Shown here: positions 10 through 57,462 of the stretch, in pieces
Layout: each line of letters begins with the position of its first letter
Position numbering within the stretch: the first letter of the stretch is position 1
From: an uncultured Clostridia bacterium
Lineage (GTDB): Bacteria > Bacillota > Clostridia > Christensenellales > UBA1242
Assembly: GCA_944360075.1 (NCBI GenBank)
Contig: CALVTE010000003.1
Coordinates: forward strand, 12,964 to 76,963
DNA: 64,000 bases
Direction of reading: 5' to 3'
Notes under the pieces: model-generated
The model's database searches: none
The model's input: the letters and a program-made list of their open reading frames with translations, nothing else
Told to the model about the DNA's origin: nothing
Made by a program: the position numbers and the translations under genes

Positions 10-1077
10 ATGGACTGCATTGTCAAAGCCTTTGACTATGAAAGGTTAAAAAATATATTCCTACATAGAAAAATAGAAATTTTAAATGAATATTTATTCA
101 TAAAATCTTTTCAAGTAAGACTGAGCGGGCAAGAAATTTTTTCGCTAAGCAATCTCAGTCAGGTGAGCAAAATCTACTCAGTTTCTGTGGCTTCGGCCAT
201 GATGAATGTGGCAAAAAAAATTTTAAATGTCACCTCTTCTTCTCTTACAGGCAAGGGTGTCACCGTGGCTTTTATTGACACAGGCTTAAGCAGGCACGTT
301 GATTTTGTGGCAGGCAAAAACAGGATAAAAATGTTTAAAGATTTTGTTGGCGAGGGCAAATTTTGCTATGATGACAACGGACACGGCACCTTTGTTTGCG
401 GAGTTTGCTCGGGCTGCGGTATGCTTTCGGGCGGCAAATATTCCGGTGTTGCTCCGCAAAGCGAAATTGTTGCGTTAAAAGCTCTTTCCTCAAAAGGAGA
501 GGCTGGCGCCGACAAGATTTTAAACGCTATGCAATGGATTTATGACAATCACAAAAAATTTGATATACGAATTGTGTGCATGAGTTTTGGCTCTGAGCCG
601 CTGGGTTTTAACGACCCCATTATGAGCGGGGCAGAAGCGCTATGGAAAGAAGGGGTGGTGGTTGTGGCTGCGGCTGGCAACAGCGGGCCGGAATTTCAGA
701 CCATAAAAAGTCCTGGAGTGTCAAAAACAATCTTGACTGTCGGCGGATTTGATGACAACCGTCTTGACGAAGAAAATTTTGATGAAAGGTTTTTTGAGGT
801 AGCTTCCTTTTCTTCCAGGGGGCCTTCTTTCAACCGCTTTAAACCCGACCTGATAGCCCCTAGTGTTGACATAACTTCTTGCGGGCTGAACAACGACTAT
901 GTCAAGCTGAGCGGCACAAGTGTTGCCACTCCAATGGTAGCGGGCATGTGCGCTCTTTTATTGCAATCAAATCCATCTTTGATGCCTGAGCAGGTCAAAA
1001 AAATCATACTCTCGCGTTGTCGTCCAATCTGTTTCAACAAAAATTTGGAAGGCTTAGGCTATCCCAAACTTAGTTGA
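10..1077 (+). CDS. S8 subtilisin-like serine protease (AprX-like, no signal peptide)
   Basis: Catalytic triad motifs FIDTG, DNGHGT and GTSVATP; oxyanion motif AAGNSG; start is at the window edge and uncertain. Confidence 0.85.
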   Translation: MDCIVKAFDYERLKNIFLHRKIEILNEYLFIKSFQVRLSGQEIFSLSNLSQVSKIYSVSVASAMMNVAKKILNVTSSSLTGKGVTVAFIDTGLSRHVDFVAGKNRIKMFKDFVGEGKFCYDDNGHGTFVCGVCSGCGMLSGGKYSGVAPQSEIVALKALSSKGEAGADKILNAMQWIYDNHKKFDIRIVCMSFGSEPLGFNDPIMSGAEALWKEGVVVVAAAGNSGPEFQTIKSPGVSKTILTVGGFDDNRLDEENFDERFFEVASFSSRGPSFNRFKPDLIAPSVDITSCGLNNDYVKLSGTSVATPMVAGMCALLLQSNPSLMPEQVKKIILSRCRPICFNKNLEGLGYPKLS

Positions 1078-1135
1078 AAATATCGTTTTTTAATCAAAAA
1101 AATGTCGATTTTGCAAAATTTTTTATGCCATCAAA

Positions 1136-2185
1136 TCATCTTTCAACTTTCTTAATTTGTTCCAAAATTTTTTCGCAAGCATCAAAAGGTTGCATTTTTT
1201 TCATGTTTTGCCTGTATTTTTCACGGTTTTTTACCAAATTATCAAGTTTTGCCATCAAAGCACTGTCGTAATATTCTTCTTCTTGCAACATATCAGCAAG
1301 CCCCTGTTTTTCAAATAATTTTGCATTTTCTATTTGGTCGCCGCGAGAACATTTTTTTGAAAGGGGGATGAGCAGCATAGGTTTTCTTAAAGCCAGAAAT
1401 TCATTTATTGCACCCGAGCCAGCACGAGAAAGCACAATATCTGCAAATGCCAAAAAATCGCCAATGTTTTCTGCATAGTCAACTTGAAGATAGTTTTTGC
1501 AGACGTGTTTGTTGTCTTTTGCCTGTTTGCCTGCAATGTGCACCACATTGAATTTTTTTGTCAAAGTTTCAAGGTTATCCCAAACTTTTTGGTTGATAAA
1601 ATTTGCGCCAAGCGAGCCGCCCACAACAAGAAGGCAGGGCAGATTTTTGTCAAATTGAGCCATGTTTTTTATTTTGTTTTTGTCGCCATTCAAAACCTTT
1701 TTTCTTATTGGTTGCCCTGTAAAAATGCACTTGTTTTTTCCTTCTGCAGTTTGCTTGAAAGTTGTGCACATCACAGAGCAATTTTTCAAAATGATTTTGT
1801 TGGCAAGCCCAAAAGTCAAGTCGCTTTCATGACTGACAACGGGAAGGCCAAGGCTTTTTGCAGCAAGCACAACAGGCATTGCCACAAAGCCTCCTTTTGA
1901 AAAAATCACTGCCGGCTTTATTTGTCGTAGCAGTTTTTTTGCCTTTTTGATTGAAGAAAAAAGTTTGAAGGGTATAAGAAGATTTTTAAGGGTAAAATTG
2001 CGAGCAAGTTTGACAGTTGGAATTTGATAGAAGCTAATATTTTTTTCTTTTCTAACAATCTCCTGTTCCATGCCGCTGCCGCCAATATAGACAAAATTAT
2101 ATTCCTTTTCCACTCTTTCTTTGACGGCTAGCAGTGGATATATGTGCCCAGCGGTGCCGCCGCCAGTCAAAACCATAGTTTTCAT
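1136..2185 (-). CDS. murG: Lipid II N-acetylglucosaminyltransferase MurG
   Basis: GGGTAGH, KGGFV, HESD, GGSLGA, SRAGSG and RGDQIENA motifs; start moved to ATG 2185 behind an AAGGAG RBS. Confidence 0.92.
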   Translation of the reverse strand: MKTMVLTGGGTAGHIYPLLAVKERVEKEYNFVYIGGSGMEQEIVRKEKNISFYQIPTVKLARNFTLKNLLIPFKLFSSIKKAKKLLRQIKPAVIFSKGGFVAMPVVLAAKSLGLPVVSHESDLTFGLANKIILKNCSVMCTTFKQTAEGKNKCIFTGQPIRKKVLNGDKNKIKNMAQFDKNLPCLLVVGGSLGANFINQKVWDNLETLTKKFNVVHIAGKQAKDNKHVCKNYLQVDYAENIGDFLAFADIVLSRAGSGAINEFLALRKPMLLIPLSKKCSRGDQIENAKLFEKQGLADMLQEEEYYDSALMAKLDNLVKNREKYRQNMKKMQPFDACEKILEQIKKVER

Positions 2186-2441
2186 ATTCTCTCCTTTGTT
2201 ATATATGTTTTTGATATAAAATTTTGCTATGACAAATTTATTATTCCCTTTTTCTGTCAAAAATATTTTTAAAGTATAACACGAAAAAATATACAACAAA
2301 ATGAATAATTATGCACAACCAACTCTTTACATTTTTTAAAAAAGATTGAAAGTAATGTTCTGTTTTGCCCTAAAAAAATTTGTTTAAAAATTTTGCTTGT
2401 GATATAATAAATTAGATTTATATGTGTTTTAAGGAGTTATA

Positions 2442-4412
2442 ATGGCTGGGAAAAACTACGATTCGAAAGATATTGTTGTGCTTGAAGGGTTGGACGCTGT
2501 CAGGCTGCGCCCGGGAATGTATATCGGCACAACTGGAGTGAAGGGGTTTCATCATCTTTTGTGGGAGATTGTGGACAATGCCATTGATGAAATTTCAAAC
2601 GGCTATGGTGACACCATAAGAATCACCTTAAACAGTGACGGCTCTGCAACAGTGGAAGACAACGGCAGAGGCATTCCTGTTGACAACCATCCAACCCTTC
2701 ACAAGTCGGGTGTGGAAGTTGTTTACACCACCTTGCATGCAGGTGGAAAATTTAACAACGCAAATTACAAATTTTCTGGCGGCTTGCATGGCGTGGGTGC
2801 TTCTGTGACAAACGCGCTTTCTTCTTGGTGCAATGTCACTGTATACAAAGACAAAAAAGAATATTTCGTGGGCTTTCATTCCTATCGTGACGAAAATGGC
2901 AAGATGCACAGCGGCGTGGCAAAAGAACCTTTGAAGTGTGTGGGAAAAACCGACAAGCAAGGCACAAAAGTCACCTTTTTGCCTGACAAAGAGATGTTTG
3001 GAAATCTTACTTTCAACTTTGAAAGCGTTTGCAACAGGGCAAGAGAACTTGCCTTTCTCAACAAGGGTCTTCGGATTGTTTTGCAAGATGAGCGAACTGG
3101 CGAAGGCGAGATATATCACTACGAAGGGGGTATTGCTGACTTTGTCAGCTATCTTGTTGAAGGCAAAAACAAACTTTTTGCAAAGCCAATTTATTTTCAT
3201 GGTCAAGACAAAAATTTTGACCTAGAAGTTGCTTTTATCTACACCGATTCCTACACAGAAAGCAGTTTTTCTTTTGTCAACAACATTCCAACCATCGAAG
3301 GCGGCACGCATGAAACAGGATTTAAAAGCGCTTTCACAAAAGTGATGAATGATTGGGCCAGAAACAATAACCTTTTGAAAGAAAAAGAGTCAAACCTTTT
3401 GGGCGAAGATTTTCGCGAAGGCATCACCGTTGTGTTGAATGTCAAAATGAACAATGTTCAATTTGAAGGGCAAACAAAAACCAAACTTGGCAATCCTGAA
3501 GCAAAAACGCTGGTGGAAAGCTTGACCATCAAAGCCCTTTCTGCCATTTTGTCTGACAAGAAAAACTCTTCTGCAGGTGAAGTGATTGTGGGCAAGGCTA
3601 AAGGCGCGGCAAAAGTGAGAGAGGCAGCCAAAAAAGCCAAGGAACTGACAAGGGCAAAAAATTCAGCCGAAAACTTTAACTTGGTTGGCAAACTTGCCGC
3701 TTCCACTTCAAAAGACAGAGAAAAATCTGAACTTTTTATTGTGGAAGGCGATTCAGCTGGCGGAAGTGCAAAACAGGGGCGAGATAGACGCTTTCAAGCC
3801 ATTTTGCCGTTGCGCGGAAAACCTTTGAATGCTGAGAAAAAAAGAATTGACCAAGTGCTTGCAAATGAAGAAATCAGAACCATCATTTCAGCCTTAAACA
3901 CAGGCATAGGCCAAGATTTTGACCTCTCAAGCTTAAGGTATAACAAAGTGATTATTCTTTCAGATGCAGACCAAGACGGGGCTCATATTCGCGCCATTTT
4001 GCTGACCTTCTTTTTCAGGTATATGCGAGAACTTATCAACGATGGCCATGTGTATATCGGTCTGCCGCCATTATATAAGGTTTACAAAAAAGATTATACC
4101 GAGTATGTGTATTCTGATGCGGAGCTGCCACAAGCCATTGCAAGAGCAGGGCGCAACTATAGCCTGCAAAGATACAAAGGGTTGGGAGAGATGAATCCTG
4201 ACCAACTTTGGGAGACAACAATGGACCCTGACAAACGCAATTTGATCAAAGTCAGCATTGACGATGCAGCAGAAGCAGAAAGGCTGGTGACCACACTTAT
4301 GGGTGATGATATTGAAGCAAGAAAGCAATATATCAATCAGCACGCAAATTTTGATAAAGAAGATGAATTTTATAAAAACTACAGCAAAGTCAACACCAAA
4401 GCGGCAGATTGA
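2442..4412 (+). CDS. parE: Type IIA topoisomerase subunit B (topo IV ParE-type)
   Basis: LEGLDAVRLRPGMYIG, EIVDNAIDE, GGLHGVG, VEGDSAGG, PLRGK, DADQDG and YKGLGEM; the paired A subunit lacks a GyrA-box. Confidence 0.8.
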   Translation: MAGKNYDSKDIVVLEGLDAVRLRPGMYIGTTGVKGFHHLLWEIVDNAIDEISNGYGDTIRITLNSDGSATVEDNGRGIPVDNHPTLHKSGVEVVYTTLHAGGKFNNANYKFSGGLHGVGASVTNALSSWCNVTVYKDKKEYFVGFHSYRDENGKMHSGVAKEPLKCVGKTDKQGTKVTFLPDKEMFGNLTFNFESVCNRARELAFLNKGLRIVLQDERTGEGEIYHYEGGIADFVSYLVEGKNKLFAKPIYFHGQDKNFDLEVAFIYTDSYTESSFSFVNNIPTIEGGTHETGFKSAFTKVMNDWARNNNLLKEKESNLLGEDFREGITVVLNVKMNNVQFEGQTKTKLGNPEAKTLVESLTIKALSAILSDKKNSSAGEVIVGKAKGAAKVREAAKKAKELTRAKNSAENFNLVGKLAASTSKDREKSELFIVEGDSAGGSAKQGRDRRFQAILPLRGKPLNAEKKRIDQVLANEEIRTIISALNTGIGQDFDLSSLRYNKVIILSDADQDGAHIRAILLTFFFRYMRELINDGHVYIGLPPLYKVYKKDYTEYVYSDAELPQAIARAGRNYSLQRYKGLGEMNPDQLWETTMDPDKRNLIKVSIDDAAEAERLVTTLMGDDIEARKQYINQHANFDKEDEFYKNYSKVNTKAAD

Positions 4413-4446
4413 AAAATATAAATTAGCTTTAGGATAAGGGGATAAT

Positions 4447-6930
4447 ATGCAGGAAAATTTTGAACAAGAAAAAATGGATATAAAGTCCAGCCAAGTTGAC
4501 CAATGGGGATTGCCAAATGATAGCGGCTCTGACCAGGGCGGCGAAAAAGGCATTATTTACAAAAGCATTGACGAGGTTTTGCATGAGTCGATGATTCCAT
4601 ACACCGAGTGCGTGGTTATGGACAGGGCTTTGCCAAGGGTGGAAGACGGGCTGAAACCTGTGCAAAGACGCATTTTGTATTCAATGCTCGAGCTTGGCAT
4701 CACGCCTGACAAACCATATCGAAAAAGTGCCAGAATTGTGGGTGACTGCCTTGGCAAATATCATCCGCACGGCGATAGTTCTGTTTATGATGCCATGTGC
4801 CGTATGGCGCAAGACTATGTGCTGCGCGCCCCTCTTGTTGACGGTCATGGAAATTTTGGCTCTATTGACGGCGACAGCCCAGCCGCTATGCGTTACACAG
4901 AGGCAAGGCTGACTCCGCTTGCTATGGAACTTATGAAGGATCTTGAAAAAGACACAGTAAGGTGGAGTTTAAACTTTGACGACACATTGAAAGAACCCGA
5001 CATGATGCCGGGGCGATTTCCAAACCTGCTTGTTAATGGCGCTTCTGGCATTGCAGTTGGAGTGGCCACAAACATTCCTTCTCACAACCTTGGCGAAGTG
5101 ATAGATGGCGTGGTGGCATATATTGACAATCCAAATATCAAACTTGAAGAGATGATGAAAATCATCAAAGCTCCAGATTTTCCAACAGGCGGTCAGATTA
5201 TTGACACCGCTGGAGGGCTTAAGTCGGCTTACGCAACTGGCAAAGGCAAAATTTTGCTCAGAGCGAAGGTAGAAGTTGAAAAACAAGGCGATAAAACGGC
5301 GCTTGTGATCAGTCAGTTGCCATATCAGGTCAACAAGGCGCTTTTGCTTCAAAAAATTGCAGAACTCAAAGAGCAGAACAAAGACAAACTTGCTCCAATC
5401 AGTGAAATTCGAGATGAATCTGACCGAACTGGAATGAGGGCTGTGATAAGGCTTAAAAAAGATGCCAACGTTAAGAAAATTTTGGAATATCTTTACAAGT
5501 CTACAAACCTTCAAATTTCCTATGCAATCAATATGGTGGCTATTGCGGGCGGCAAACCTAGACTTATGGGGTTGCTTGAAATAATTTCTTACTACGCGCA
5601 GTATCAGCGAGAGATTATTGTCAGACGCACCAAATATGACCTTAACATGGCAAAGGAACGGGCTCATATTGTTGAAGGTCTCCTGGTTGCCATCAAAAAT
5701 ATTGACGAAGTGATCAAAATCATCAAAAAGTCAGCCACCACAAGTGAGGCAAGGCAAAAACTTCGCGAAAGATTTAGCTTGTCGGAAAAACAGGCGCAAG
5801 CAATTTTGGATATGCGTCTGGCAAGGCTTGTCAATTTGGAAGTGAACAAACTTGAAGAAGAACTTAAAATGCTCAAAGCAAAAATAAGTGAATATGAAAG
5901 AATTTTGGCCTCCAAAAAAGCTCAATTTGATGTGGTTAAAAAAGAAATTTTAGAGATAAAGCATAACTACGCAACAAAACGTCAATCAAAAATCTTAAAA
6001 GACGACGAGGTTTGCGTGGTAGAGGCTTCCGATAAGGCTGAAAATGACGCGGTCGATGTGGTTGTGGCCATCTCTTGTGGCAACACTATCAAACGGCTTT
6101 CCACAAAAAATTATTCTATGAGTCAAAAGTCTTTATCAGACAATTCCACCATCACAGACGTGCACTCTCAAGTGCTGAAAGTGCCATCAAATGAGCAACT
6201 GTTTATCGTGACAAACAAAGGCAACTGCCTTAAAGTGACGGCTGGCCAGATAAAAGAGTGCAAATGGCGTGACAAGGGGCTTTCGCTCAACCAAATTGAC
6301 AAAAATATTTCTCAAGACGAAATTCCTATCAGCATTTTAACCCTTCAAAAAGAGGGCTATGTGCTGTTTATGACAGAAGAAGGCATGGTTAAAAAATCGG
6401 CAATCAATGATTTGGTAGTTTCAAAATCGGTTTATCAAGTTGTAAAAATCAATGACGGCGACAATCTCATCAGCGCTGAAATAGTAAAACAAGACCAGCC
6501 AATTTTGATGCTTTCGGCTTTGGGTATGTCTCTTTGCTTCTCTTCAGCCGAAGTGCCTCTTCAAGGTAGAATTTCTGCAGGTGTGAAGGGGATAAACCTT
6601 GATGAAGGCGACAAAGTGATCTTTGCAAAGGTTGTTGACTTTGAAAGCGTGGTGGTTGTTTCAAACAAAGGCTACATCAAAAAAATCAAAACCTCGCAGT
6701 TTGCCCTTGCTTCAAGATATAGAAAAGGGTTGAAATATATCAATTTGGCTCCGTCGCAGAAAGTATACTTTGCTTGCGCCGACCAAGGAGGCTGCGTGCT
6801 GGCTGTGGATTTTGGGTTGAAAATTTTGCCGCTAGAAACAAAAAAACTGCCTTATAGCGACAGGCTTTCGGCTGGAAACGAAATCATCAAGAAAAACTTT
6901 TTCTCCATCAATCAATATTCACTGTTATAA
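4447..6930 (+). CDS. parC: Type IIA topoisomerase subunit A (topo IV ParC-type)
   Basis: [26 protein letters not shown] and [10 protein letters not shown] (catalytic Tyr); beta-pinwheel C-terminal domain has no QRRGGKG GyrA-box. Confidence 0.8.
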
Positions 6931-6931
6931 C

Positions 6932-6960
6932 AAGTCCGAGCGTTAAGCTCGGCTTTTTTT
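6932..6960 (+). terminator. Intrinsic terminator after parC
   Basis: AAGTCCGAGC-GTTAA-GCTCGGCTT followed by a T run. Confidence 0.75.
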
Positions 6961-7226
6961 GCTGCCGTGTTGCTTTTTTGCAACTTTTTTTGCAAAATAG
7001 TTTGTGTTTTTATAAAAAAATTGTTAAAATATATCAGGCGATAGCTTAAGCCCAAGAAGTTGGTCAAAATTTTTTGAGAAATTTTTTGGCCAAAACGCAT
7101 AAAGACAAATCTCGCAAATATAATAGGAATAGATTTTCGACAATTTTTTGCTTTATTCAACAATAATCAGCAAAATTTTGGTTTGTTTAAGTCTTGAAAA
7201 AATTTATTATTAAAAGTGAGGTTTGT

Positions 7227-7991
7227 ATGCCATTTTGTGTTATCAAATCTAGAACAATCAAAATCTTTCTTGCAATGGTGGCCGTTGTTGTTTTGCTTGC
7301 AATTTCTTTTGAGGGTGGATCAGCCGCTCAGGTGTGGTTTGGTTATAGCACCCGCCTTGTGCCAGTCTATAGAGTGGAAAGGCAAGAAAAACAGGTGGCA
7401 ATTTCTTTTGATGCTGCTTGGGGCGCTGACAAAACACAGCAGATTATCGATGTGCTGAAGCAATATGATGCTGGAGCAACTTTCTTTTTGGTCGGGTTTT
7501 GGGTGGATAAGCATCCTGAAATGGTCAAAGCTATCGACCAAGCGGGTTTTGAAATCGGCACTCACTCCAACACTCATCCAGACATGGCAAAAATAAGCCA
7601 AGAAAACATTGCCAAAGAGCTTGACATTTCCACTGAAAAAATCAAGGCAATCACGGGCAAAGAGGTGACGCTTTTCAGACCGCCTTACGGCTCTTATAAC
7701 AACCAACTTATTTCGGCCTGCAATCAAAGAAATCTTATTCCAATTCAATGGGATGTTGATTCGCTTGACTGGAAGGGCTTGTCTGCCACCGAGATTACCA
7801 AAAGGGTTGTGACAAAGGTGGAGAGCGGCTCGATTATATTGATGCACAACAATGCCGACAATGTTGTTGACGCACTCAAAATGGTGCTTGAAAGATTGAC
7901 CAATGATGGCTATCAGATAACTTCTGTCGGGCAGCTTGTTTATCACTCAAATTATACGATTGACAGAAATGGAGTGCAACACTCAAATTAA
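7227..7991 (+). CDS. pdaB: Polysaccharide deacetylase, sporulation PdaB-like
   Basis: N-terminal hydrophobic anchor; ISFDAAWG, HSNTH, FRPPYG, DSLDW and ILMHN NodB motifs. Confidence 0.75.
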   Translation: MPFCVIKSRTIKIFLAMVAVVVLLAISFEGGSAAQVWFGYSTRLVPVYRVERQEKQVAISFDAAWGADKTQQIIDVLKQYDAGATFFLVGFWVDKHPEMVKAIDQAGFEIGTHSNTHPDMAKISQENIAKELDISTEKIKAITGKEVTLFRPPYGSYNNQLISACNQRNLIPIQWDVDSLDWKGLSATEITKRVVTKVESGSIILMHNNADNVVDALKMVLERLTNDGYQITSVGQLVYHSNYTIDRNGVQHSN

Positions 7992-55787: not shown

Positions 55788-56261
55788 ATGGATGATATCA
55801 AAGAGCTTATAACCAAGGTGGTCAAATATCAACCACAATATAAAAACGCGCAAGAAGTTTTGAAAGACCTTTTGCAAATTCAGCCAATCGACCTTACCTC
55901 AAAAGACACAAAAATGAAAGACGCAATGGACTGGGGCAAAGAAGTTGTGCTGTGCCTATATCGAGCAAGAAACTATTCTTTTTCAAAACAAGAGGCTGAA
56001 GTTTTGCGAGAAGCTCTTGACTTTATTGGCGCTTTGCCGCTTGAAAATTTTGATCAAATTGCGCCGCAACTGACAAGCCAAACTGCAAAAGACCGCATCG
56101 ATCCAGCACTTGTCAATGATGTTGCTTTTCCAGTGTTTGCAGCAGGCCAATTCCGAGACGAAGAAGGCGGCAAAATGGGTGTGGTTTTGAATGACATTGC
56201 TGATTTTTGGCTTGTAGAACAGGAGTATGCCGACAAAAGACCGACGCAAACTGAAAAGTAA
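55788..56261 (+). CDS. Orphan hypothetical protein
   Basis: 157-aa ORF, TTTACA-17-TAAAAT promoter, AAGGAG RBS. Confidence 0.7.
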   Translation: MDDIKELITKVVKYQPQYKNAQEVLKDLLQIQPIDLTSKDTKMKDAMDWGKEVVLCLYRARNYSFSKQEAEVLREALDFIGALPLENFDQIAPQLTSQTAKDRIDPALVNDVAFPVFAAGQFRDEEGGKMGVVLNDIADFWLVEQEYADKRPTQTEK

Positions 56262-56327
56262 AATGATTTGAAAACGAAAGGCGTAATCGAAAAGATTATG
56301 CTTTTTTTTAAATTTTTGGGCAATAAG

Positions 56328-56356
56328 TTGACAAATCTTTGCAGAATAGGTATATT
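56328..56356 (+). promoter_or_regulatory. Sigma-A promoter of tRNA-Thr
   Basis: TTGACA-17 bp-TATATT. Confidence 0.7.
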
Positions 56357-56391
56357 TATTTTGCGCACTTTTTTTTGAGTAAACAATTTGT

Positions 56392-56467
56392 GCTAACGTG
56401 GCTCAGTCGGTAGAGCAGTTGATTCGTAATCAACAGGTCGCGGGTTCGATCCCCGCCGTTAGCTCCA
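56392..56467 (+). tRNA. tRNA-Thr (anticodon CGT)
   Basis: Full 76-nt cloverleaf: acceptor GCTAACG/CGTTAGC, D-stem GCTC/GAGC, anticodon arm GTTGA-TTCGTAA-TCAAC, T-arm GCGGG-TTCGATC-CCCGC, encoded CCA. Confidence 0.97.
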
Positions 56468-56730
56468 TAAAGAAATGAAGTCAGAAGAAGTGCTAAATGA
56501 GAAAAACAGGATAAGCGACCTGTTGATGAAGGGCTCCTGAAAATGCCGAGCATTTTTGGGAAAAGGAGCACTCTTTCGCAAGGCGAGATTTGGCCTGCAA
56601 GGGCAAATCGACAGAAAAGAAAGCAGTGCGACGCGGTCGCGGGTTCGATTCCCGCCGTTAGCTCCATAAAGAAATGAAGTCAGAAGAAGTGCTAAATGAG
56701 AAAAACAGGATAAGCGACCTGTTGAAGAAG
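56436..56730 (+). repeat. 96-bp direct repeat (56436-56531 and 56635-56730) of tRNA 3' half plus trailer, around a 103-bp structured insert
   Basis: The two copies differ at only 2 positions by direct comparison. Confidence 0.92.
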
Positions 56731-56751
56731 TAATAGTAATAAAGGAAAAAC

Positions 56752-57462
56752 ATGGAAAGACCGATTATTATAGGGATTATAGCAAAACACCTTGAAAAAA
56801 ATGGGCACAAAAGACAAAATGCTTTGATAAGAGATGAAGTGAAAAATGCAATTTTTGCAAATGGGGCAATCGCTATTGGAATATTGTCGCCAGAAAAAGA
56901 AATTGGCTTTATTCACAAGATAAATCAAACGCATTGGAACTTGACCAAACGTGAGCAACAATATTTGATTGAACAAATCAACCTTTGTGACGGCATTGTT
57001 TTGCAGGGCGGAAGAAACTCAGAACACTTTGAGTCTTGGGTGGCAAAATATACTTATGACCACGATATTCCAACACTTGGCATTTGCGCTGGACAAAACA
57101 ACATGATAAGGGGGCTTGGCGGAAGCGTTAAGTGTGTGAAAAATCAAAAAAAGCATAATCAAATGTGGGTGGATTATGTGCATCCAATTTTTATTGACAG
57201 CAAAAGCCGCTTTTACAAAATTGTGGGCTGCAAAAAAATGGATGTCAACTCTCGTCATATCTACGCCATCAAGCAACCGACTGAAAACTATCGTGTTGCG
57301 GCAGTGTGTGACGATGGCTATTTTGATGTTTTGGAAGCGCCAGACAAAAAATTCAACTTTGCTCTCAGATTTCATCCAGAAAGTTTGTTTGAAAAAAGCC
57401 CAGAGCACAACAAAATTTTCAAGGCCTTTATCAAAGCGTGCAAAGAAAATCGCAAAAACTAA
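56752..57462 (+). CDS. Class I glutamine amidotransferase-like hydrolase (peptidase C26/PuuD family)
   Basis: DGIVLQGG, LGICAG, VNSRH, FHPE. Confidence 0.85.
   Translation: MERPIIIGIIAKHLEKNGHKRQNALIRDEVKNAIFANGAIAIGILSPEKEIGFIHKINQTHWNLTKREQQYLIEQINLCDGIVLQGGRNSEHFESWVAKYTYDHDIPTLGICAGQNNMIRGLGGSVKCVKNQKKHNQMWVDYVHPIFIDSKSRFYKIVGCKKMDVNSRHIYAIKQPTENYRVAAVCDDGYFDVLEAPDKKFNFALRFHPESLFEKSPEHNKIFKAFIKACKENRKN

Follow-up and report, generated by a model that had tools for sequence, protein, structure and literature searches.

A gene-less three-helix repeat of small gut Clostridia genomes, flanked by antisense and sense tRNA copies at tRNA genes and also lying inside other non-coding repeats

Here we describe a family of short non-coding repeats with a conserved three-helix fold, one copy of which lies behind a tRNA-Thr(CGT) gene of an uncultured Clostridia bacterium (GCA_944360075.1, contig CALVTE010000003.1). 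The 64,000-nt stretch of this contig that was analysed is referred to as the window. The existence of the family, its fold, its copy numbers and contexts, a flank rule by which tRNA-derived arms covary with the local tRNA, hairpins found both filled and empty, and differences in copy number between strains were all observed. We read the insert in the window as a member of a mobile repeat family that is non-coding and non-autonomous, inserts into the loops of hairpins and keeps the tRNA gene intact, and we give this reading a probability of about one half. The combination of a conserved scaffold, covarying flanks (antisense on the left, sense on the right), entry at four different loops and no cognate enzyme was not found described in Rfam or in the literature on the systems compared below. 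Its parts are already known separately, as tRNA-linked repeats (tyrT/RtT), att-site duplications and hairpin-targeting insertion sequences.

The only tRNA gene that ARAGORN found in the window is an intact tRNA-Thr(CGT) with an encoded CCA (56392-56467, plus strand, as are all features of this locus; Rfam tRNA 72.8 bits). A repeat search confirmed the 96-bp duplication that a sequence-only reading of this DNA had described. The repeat begins at tRNA nt 45 in the variable loop, includes the T arm, the 3' acceptor strand, the CCA and a 64-nt trailer (56436-56531), and recurs at 56635-56730 with 98% identity (2 mismatches) and a spacing of 199. No terminator was found in this trailer, which contains near its end an antisense segment, GCGACCTGTTGAT (56515-56527). 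This segment is an exact 13-nt reverse complement of tRNA nt 38-50, covering the 3' strand of the anticodon stem, the variable loop and the start of the T stem, and its counterparts in other species change together with the tRNA beside them.

The 103 nt between the two repeat copies (56532-56634) constitute the scaffold, matched by our covariance model R1 at 56530-56634 with 105.3 bits. Folding and pair counts define three helices: H1, a 12-bp hairpin with a conserved G-U pair (56535-56561); P2, with its 5' strand at 56568-56577 and its 3' strand at 56619-56629; and H3, a variable hairpin with a GCAA loop (56587-56609). Scaffold alignments show a conserved linker, AAAGGAGC (56562-56569), the last two bases of which begin P2, and a conserved 3' end, GCGACGC (56628-56634), in which GACG is invariant in 17 of 17 sequences. 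A displaced sense copy of tRNA nt 45-76 follows directly (56635-56666) and equals the live gene at 30 of the last 31 positions. By the repeat search and the unit anatomy described below, the second trailer copy (56667-56730) ends in a second antisense segment (56714-56726, 1 mismatch), which is the start of a further, truncated unit.

The insert is GC-richer than its surroundings (0.51, compared with 0.33-0.42 for the contigs) and folds at -39.1 kcal/mol against a shuffle mean of -27.2 (z = -3.39; 1 of 200 shuffles equal), with helices as the sequence-only reading had drawn them. An alternative pairing around H1, GCTCC/GGAGC, was rejected because it is inconsistently kept, and a small ORF behind a conserved AAGGAG was rejected because its start codon is not conserved. 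The possibility of an assembly artefact, raised in the same reading, was checked against Logan contigs from chicken-gut metagenomes. Pieces of these contigs (X1, 56497-56664; X2, 56497-56583, 56554-56646 and 56617-56690; X12, 56620-56730) cover the repeat-insert-repeat junctions in three independent studies, and the arrangement is therefore not an artefact, though no single Logan contig spans the entire stretch. A search of 56000-57000 against Rfam at E <= 10 returned only the tRNA, a T-arm fragment matched by the tmRNA model and chance matches far below thresholds. Thus no known family was matched beyond tRNA, and RtT was not among the matches at this threshold; at gathering score, 16 related loci gave tRNAs only.

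The genus is represented by 154 species genomes. Among the 153 besides our own, the tRNA-Thr match extended beyond the tRNA into the insert in 18, and most of the remaining species matched in the tRNA only. We read the anatomy at the window and at 13 of these 18 loci, giving 14 loci with 18 units of 192-228 nt. From left to right, each unit has an AT-rich, species-specific spacer, then 13-20 nt antisense to tRNA nt 31/38-49/52, then the conserved scaffold and finally nt 46-76 in sense orientation. Both arms follow the local tRNA. The sense copy equals it at 29-31 of 31 positions and tracks changes in its acceptor stem, and the antisense copy tracks changes in its anticodon stem (GTTGAT, GTCGAT, ACCGAT, GCTGAT). 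Units also occur in arrays, with two in G241 and in G246, three in G250, and at least three units of a distinct 132-nt module in G211. G241 is a near-identical relative (98% identity in the flank) and carries two units where the window has one, the proximal unit being a different H3 variant. An array is also seen in a metatranscriptome library, where one contig of depth 3.9 runs from one insert through the copy into a second insert; origin from an RNA library is no proof of transcription.

Approximately 0.7 kb downstream of the G246 array (L311, G246:C4, 1400-2080) lies a gene for an IS200-like Y1 transposase, with a 157-aa ORF between the two. The transposase gene has an internal stop codon, and we rejected it as a mobiliser because it is a separate pseudogene that looks like an unrelated, broken insertion.

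The sequence-only reading had also suggested a tRNA-mimic RNA with a large insert, in which GCTAA of the trailer would pair with TTAGC of the second tRNA copy. This idea is not supported. A tRNA-like or tmRNA-like RNA would have an acceptor stem closed by a 5' strand and stacked on a T arm, but the acceptor pairing is not conserved: a complement of at least 6 nt to the 3' acceptor strand was found in 0 of 18 homologous units. The copy at tRNA-Arg described below is without the 5' strand of the T stem, and ARAGORN and Rfam gave no second tRNA-like or tmRNA gene.

To describe the scaffold as a family, R1 was built from 17 scaffolds and a hand-drawn structure with 27 pairs in H1, P2 and H3. It matched 102 of 151 genus genomes (E <= 1e-4), with up to 23 copies per genome and more than 500 matches in total, nearly all of full length. 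Base pairs were counted in 69 matches, 62 of them distinct, in a sample that leans to Thr-type copies and an alignment that is fitted to the model and favours the structure; read with that bias, 87.1% of the paired cells of the 62 distinct copies could pair, compared with 68.7% in shuffles (reached by 0 of 500) and 34-55% in slid controls with partners moved by 1-3 columns. Double, compensatory changes occur in 22 of the 27 pairs, distributed as 7 of 11 in H1 (95% of cells paired), 9 of 10 in P2 and 6 of 6 in H3. An independent RNAalifold prediction on a MAFFT alignment gave compensatory changes in 12 of 31 pairs. H1 cells hold 51 G-U or U-G against 13 A-C or C-A combinations, mostly at one conserved pair, and this excess indicates that the tRNA-sense strand is the one that folds; P2 and H3 have no such strand bias. 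Thirty of 64 distinct copies, again a sample leaning to the Thr type, have a tRNA within 500 nt, of which 26 have it on their own strand only, 3 on the opposite strand, and 1 on both. Beyond the genus, dozens of assemblies of gut Clostridia also have the H1 motif, usually arranged as at the T loop and frequently in arrays; its strict form, by contrast, was found in only 4 of 200 other genomes sampled from the family. Tandem runs of two to four H1 hairpins or whole units were seen in other gut Clostridia assemblies (L081, L085, L080, L033), in some cases with consecutive hairpins only 9-10 nt apart.

The host genome of the window (899 kb, 24 contigs, 85% complete) contains further copies. A BLAST search with the insert, as the sequence-only reading had proposed, found a second copy behind tRNA-Arg(ACG) with the same duplication geometry. 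It has the same H1, with one G-C to A-U exchange, and the same 3' end GCGACGC, followed by a duplicate of the 3' part of tRNA-Arg and its terminator. This copy and the homologous core at tRNA-Thr in 18 other species support the earlier suggestion of a small, enzyme-less element tied to tRNA genes, and the proposed search for such copies gave a positive result. The antisense tRNA copy left of the junction, the dispersed multi-copy scaffold and the many copies away from tRNA genes had no place in that reading.

A genome-wide scan for duplicated tRNA 3' ends and for the H1 motif found shorter modules with a shared H1 behind the tRNAs Leu(CAA, TAG, AAG), Met and Glu(CTC); Met, Asn and Phe tRNAs are followed by other modules. 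Weak matches to the scaffold model added three cases: a pseudo-tRNA-Phe copy immediately before the real gene has a scaffold inside its anticodon loop, pseudo 5' copies that precede tRNA-Leu(CAA) and Leu(TAA) have H1 inside their D loop, and Leu(AAG) has a third unit. The junctions lie in the D loop, the anticodon loop, the variable loop and the T loop. A strict two-sided rule, under which both a sense copy (12 nt or longer) and an antisense copy (10 nt or longer) must lie within 450 nt downstream, was passed by 9 of the 38 tRNAs; in control pairs of mismatched tRNAs and flanks these lengths were reached in 5.8% and 3.4% of 2680 cases. With 5'-side and other forms added, modules are present at at least 12 of the 38 tRNA genes. 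Where the tRNA is Arg, Met, Glu or Leu, it is separated from the module by a terminator (a hairpin with T run), and the module often begins 4-25 nt after this terminator. Units in arrays carry different trailers, for example at Leu(CAA).

Read in tRNA orientation, the tRNA-linked copies share one order: antisense of the sequence left of the junction, scaffold, and a sense copy from the junction to the CCA. The antisense piece is the T arm at the Arg, Leu, Met and Glu copies, and in D-loop copies of relatives ATTCCGCC precedes ATGGCAGAC as the antisense piece. Between the antisense arm and the sense arm there is an overlap of 5-7 nt, over which they could pair (GCGAC/GTCGC at Thr, GTGGGAG/CTCCCAC at Leu). 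When inverted flanks were tested for in general by k-mers, the signal was weak, with a median longest match of 5 compared with 4 in controls. The pseudo-tRNA-Phe consists of nt 1-36, the scaffold, nt 44-62 and an antisense T arm (G000:C15:16583-16824, minus strand). Its sequence is found again at the end of contig C21 (G000:C21:1-140, minus strand), and contigs C15 and C21 probably join there.

Many copies lie away from tRNA genes. Among 22 copies examined in three high-copy genomes, five are beside tRNA genes or pieces of them and the rest are inside other non-coding repeats. For one of these repeats, the 45-nt hairpin HPb, both empty and filled versions were found; a filled HPb has the scaffold in place of its loop and of the distal part of its 3' arm, and retains the 5' arm together with the final 5 nt of the 3' arm. 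At 12 scanned loci with non-tRNA copies the neighbours are ordinary housekeeping genes, with no transposase nearby and a serine recombinase near one only (L045). Five copies (L291, L293, L304, L307, L310) have behind the scaffold one and the same conserved sequence, about 100 nt long (CGAAGAGGACTGGGAAGAG...GTTGGTGTCCG..), which points to a larger composite repeat.

No enzyme that would move the repeat was identified among the families surveyed. In our own genome, at 85% completeness, Y1 transposase (PF01797), TnpB, IS1182-type DDE transposase (PF13751), IS110 (PF01548) and reverse transcriptase were not found. In a sample of 11 high-copy and 11 zero-copy relatives, Y1 was present in 3 of 22 (2 high-copy, 1 zero-copy), reverse transcriptase in 8 of 22 (2 high-copy, 6 zero-copy), and IS1182, IS110 and TnpB in 0 of 22, such that none of the five tracks scaffold copy number. 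The recombinases of our genome are limited to one large serine integrase and one tyrosine recombinase, whose best match, XerS, reaches 188.6 bits and so stays under the cut-off of 267. A search for a dif-like site resembling H1 in the region before the Xer-like gene gave nothing convincing.

The serine integrase (507 aa) stands at the end of a 6-kb AT-rich island in tRNA-Leu(CAA) (L003, G000:C6:36500-45500, 936-7280), directly followed by two modules. The island also encodes a DnaQ-like exonuclease with a BRCT domain and two proteins without a Pfam family, and the last codons of the integrase imitate the tRNA-Leu 3' end (..GGTTCG..CCGCACCA). Comparison of L003 with its relatives L147-L150 shows flanks that become different immediately behind the tRNA-Leu CACCA, at either border of the element, and this places the integrase crossover at the CCA end and not in the T loop. 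The hairpin motif was absent, up to 6 kb on either side, from the 42 loci checked among the 80 of the integrase relatives, and we rejected this integrase as the mobiliser on both grounds. A scan of viral contigs for the motif returned only 1 chance palindrome. At tRNA-Leu(TAG) in another genome (L010, G033:C47, about 1500-1660), a fragment of the 210-aa island protein is fused directly to the module (82% identity over 34 aa), which suggests deletions that end at the left border of the module.

As a mechanism, we propose that the family, about 100 nt long and with three helices, enters the loops of DNA hairpins. At tRNA genes the targets would be the D, anticodon, variable and T loops of a cloverleaf formed by single-stranded tDNA, and elsewhere they would be other palindromic repeats. 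The product at a tRNA gene would begin with an intact tRNA and a spacer; the 10-20 nt that lie left of the junction would follow in inverted form, then the scaffold, and last a direct copy from the junction to the CCA, so that the gene stays functional and the old part is pushed aside. Arrays could lengthen when further copies enter the live gene, or when the direct repeats cross over unequally. We infer that the element moves as DNA, with a folded single strand of tRNA sense as its active form, that the tRNA-derived flanks may be made or chosen at insertion, and that the enzyme would act in trans. If the mobile reading holds, very small gut genomes (about 0.7-1.5 Mb) carry a repeat that enters essential tRNA genes without destroying them, and the covariation of flank and target is a natural record of site recognition by shape and base pairing. 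The modules also create partial tRNA copies and break assemblies at tRNA loci, and the annotation of such genomes is affected.

Alternatively, the scaffold could encode a small structured RNA or act in cis within the transcript of the tRNA, with the RNA released by tRNA read-through like RtT. The antisense arm would then pair with tRNA-Thr or its precursor, the 3' end would copy the tRNA, and the dispersed copies would be paralogues. This explanation, which is compatible with the mobile reading, appears fairly unlikely to us. Three helices kept by compensatory changes, an H1 in which G-U outnumbers A-C by 51 to 13 so that the tRNA-sense strand folds, and 26 of 30 tRNA-linked copies on the strand of the tRNA all favour it, as do two arms that still correspond to the neighbouring tRNA, a Thr trailer without a terminator in the window, and the array contig of depth 3.9 from the metatranscriptome library. 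The species-specific, drifting spacers and conserved scaffold at tRNA-Thr also fit vertical inheritance of a selected RNA. However, a terminator separates tRNA and module at the Arg, Met, Glu and Leu copies, and since the module often begins so soon after it, there is no room for a promoter. An RNA gene also does not account well for copies inside other repeats that replace part of a hairpin, or for tandem arrays with copy numbers that differ between strains. Rfam matches, including to RtT, are absent, and the contigs from RNA libraries do not establish transcription. In integron attC and CTX phage attachment sites a single strand folds into the recombination site, and by analogy the arms and scaffold might fold as such a site in a gene-less mini-cassette, whose circle a XerS-like recombinase of the host would insert into the tRNA gene, with the newest unit adjoining the gene. 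We consider this rather doubtful. It would account for the arrays, the strand bias and the missing enzyme, and it is consistent with arms that overlap and can pair over 5-7 nt, a strand-specific H1 fold, array units with different trailers (as at Leu(CAA)), a proximal unit that is the odd one in G241, and a genome in which no enzyme is borne by the element and the one tyrosine recombinase is XerS-like, although below cut-off. Yet nothing connects this recombinase with the sites, the closing stem is short, and the copies in other hairpins delete part of their target, unlike a conservative site-specific exchange.

A more far-reaching possibility is that the two arms, antisense and sense, act as programmable guides: as RNA, or as single-stranded DNA in folded form, they would direct the scaffold to a selected loop in a selected tRNA gene for a not yet recognised recombinase (neither IS110, TnpB nor a Y1 transposase), and exchange of the arms would retarget it from Thr to Arg, Leu or Phe. 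We regard this as a long shot; if true, it would be a guide-directed insertion system that repairs its own target. Least probable is a view that fits poorly, in which the modules are inactive, decayed ends (att-site arrays) left by prophages or integrative elements formerly resident in tRNA genes. Partial tRNA duplication by integrating elements is common (PMC9897764), and the 6-kb serine-integrase island in tRNA-Leu(CAA) adjoins two modules. But that integrase family crosses over at the CCA end, the hairpin motif was found at 0 of 42 checked loci of its relatives and in viral contigs only as 1 chance palindrome, and compensatory change has kept the fold of a scaffold that is also dispersed at non-tRNA sites.

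In the E. coli tyrT operon each repeat unit closes with a copy of the tRNA 3' end, and the position of our units directly behind a tRNA gene resembles these tRNA-linked repeats and their RtT (rttR) RNA. However, there is no match to them in sequence or structure (for RtT, at E <= 10), and the family described here has an antisense arm and places its scaffold at many tRNAs and non-tRNA sites in most genomes of the genus. With integrase att remnants the locus shares the direct repeat of the tRNA 3' end (96 nt; 31 nt in other species) and a live gene that is kept whole (PMC9897764). Arrays of tRNA remnants are also reported for tycheposons. The likeness to an att site noted in the sequence-only reading is only loose, the one nearby integrase crossing over at the CCA end and not at these junctions. 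The element also differs from att remnants in being 100-200 nt long and gene-less, in its inverted copy of the left flank, and in its 5'-side entry at D and anticodon loops.

Other parallels are found among elements that recognise DNA structure. According to PMC4923244, IS1272/TnSha1 of the IS1182 family targets DNA secondary structures, removes part of a stem-loop and does not produce a target duplication. The filled and empty HPb hairpins, with part of the stem-loop lost, and the junctions in cloverleaf loops are similar to what is described there; in contrast to it, 31-96 nt of tRNA and trailer are duplicated at the tRNA sites here. An IS1182-family MITE would also be expected to have its cognate DDE transposase, and PF13751 was found neither in our own genome (0 of 1) nor in the relatives (0 of 22). 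For the IS110 bridge RNA, PMC11208160 describes two arms of 4-9 nt, the 5' arm sense and the 3' arm antisense to the target, which pair with opposite strands flanking the crossover and overlap at the core. The two overlapping arms of our units resemble this only loosely. Relative to that description the order is reversed, with the 5' arm antisense to the top strand, and the arms are 13-31 nt long; the DEDD recombinase PF01548 was seen neither in our own genome (0 of 1) nor in any of the 22 relatives.

Integron attC sites and the hairpin elements of IS200/IS605 or REP type need a folded single strand, pair an inverse core with the core, and form arrays of units. No integron integrase was identified here; the arms overlap by 5-7 nt, and the only tyrosine recombinase scores best against XerS, below cut-off. 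Unlike in IS200/IS605 or REP/RAYT systems, the Y1 domain PF01797 is absent from our own genome and, with 3 of 22 relatives, does not follow copy number.

The central dinucleotide of the T loop is not inverted in three of the antisense T-arm copies. At Arg (L002, 1475-1495) and at Asn (G000:C8, about 2290-2310, minus strand) the sequence is CGGGAC-GA-GAACCC, where CGGGAC-TC-GAACCC would be expected. At the Thr locus of G211 (L251) it is ATTC-TC-A in place of the expected ATTC-GA-A. This non-inverted dinucleotide could be a trace of the joining chemistry.
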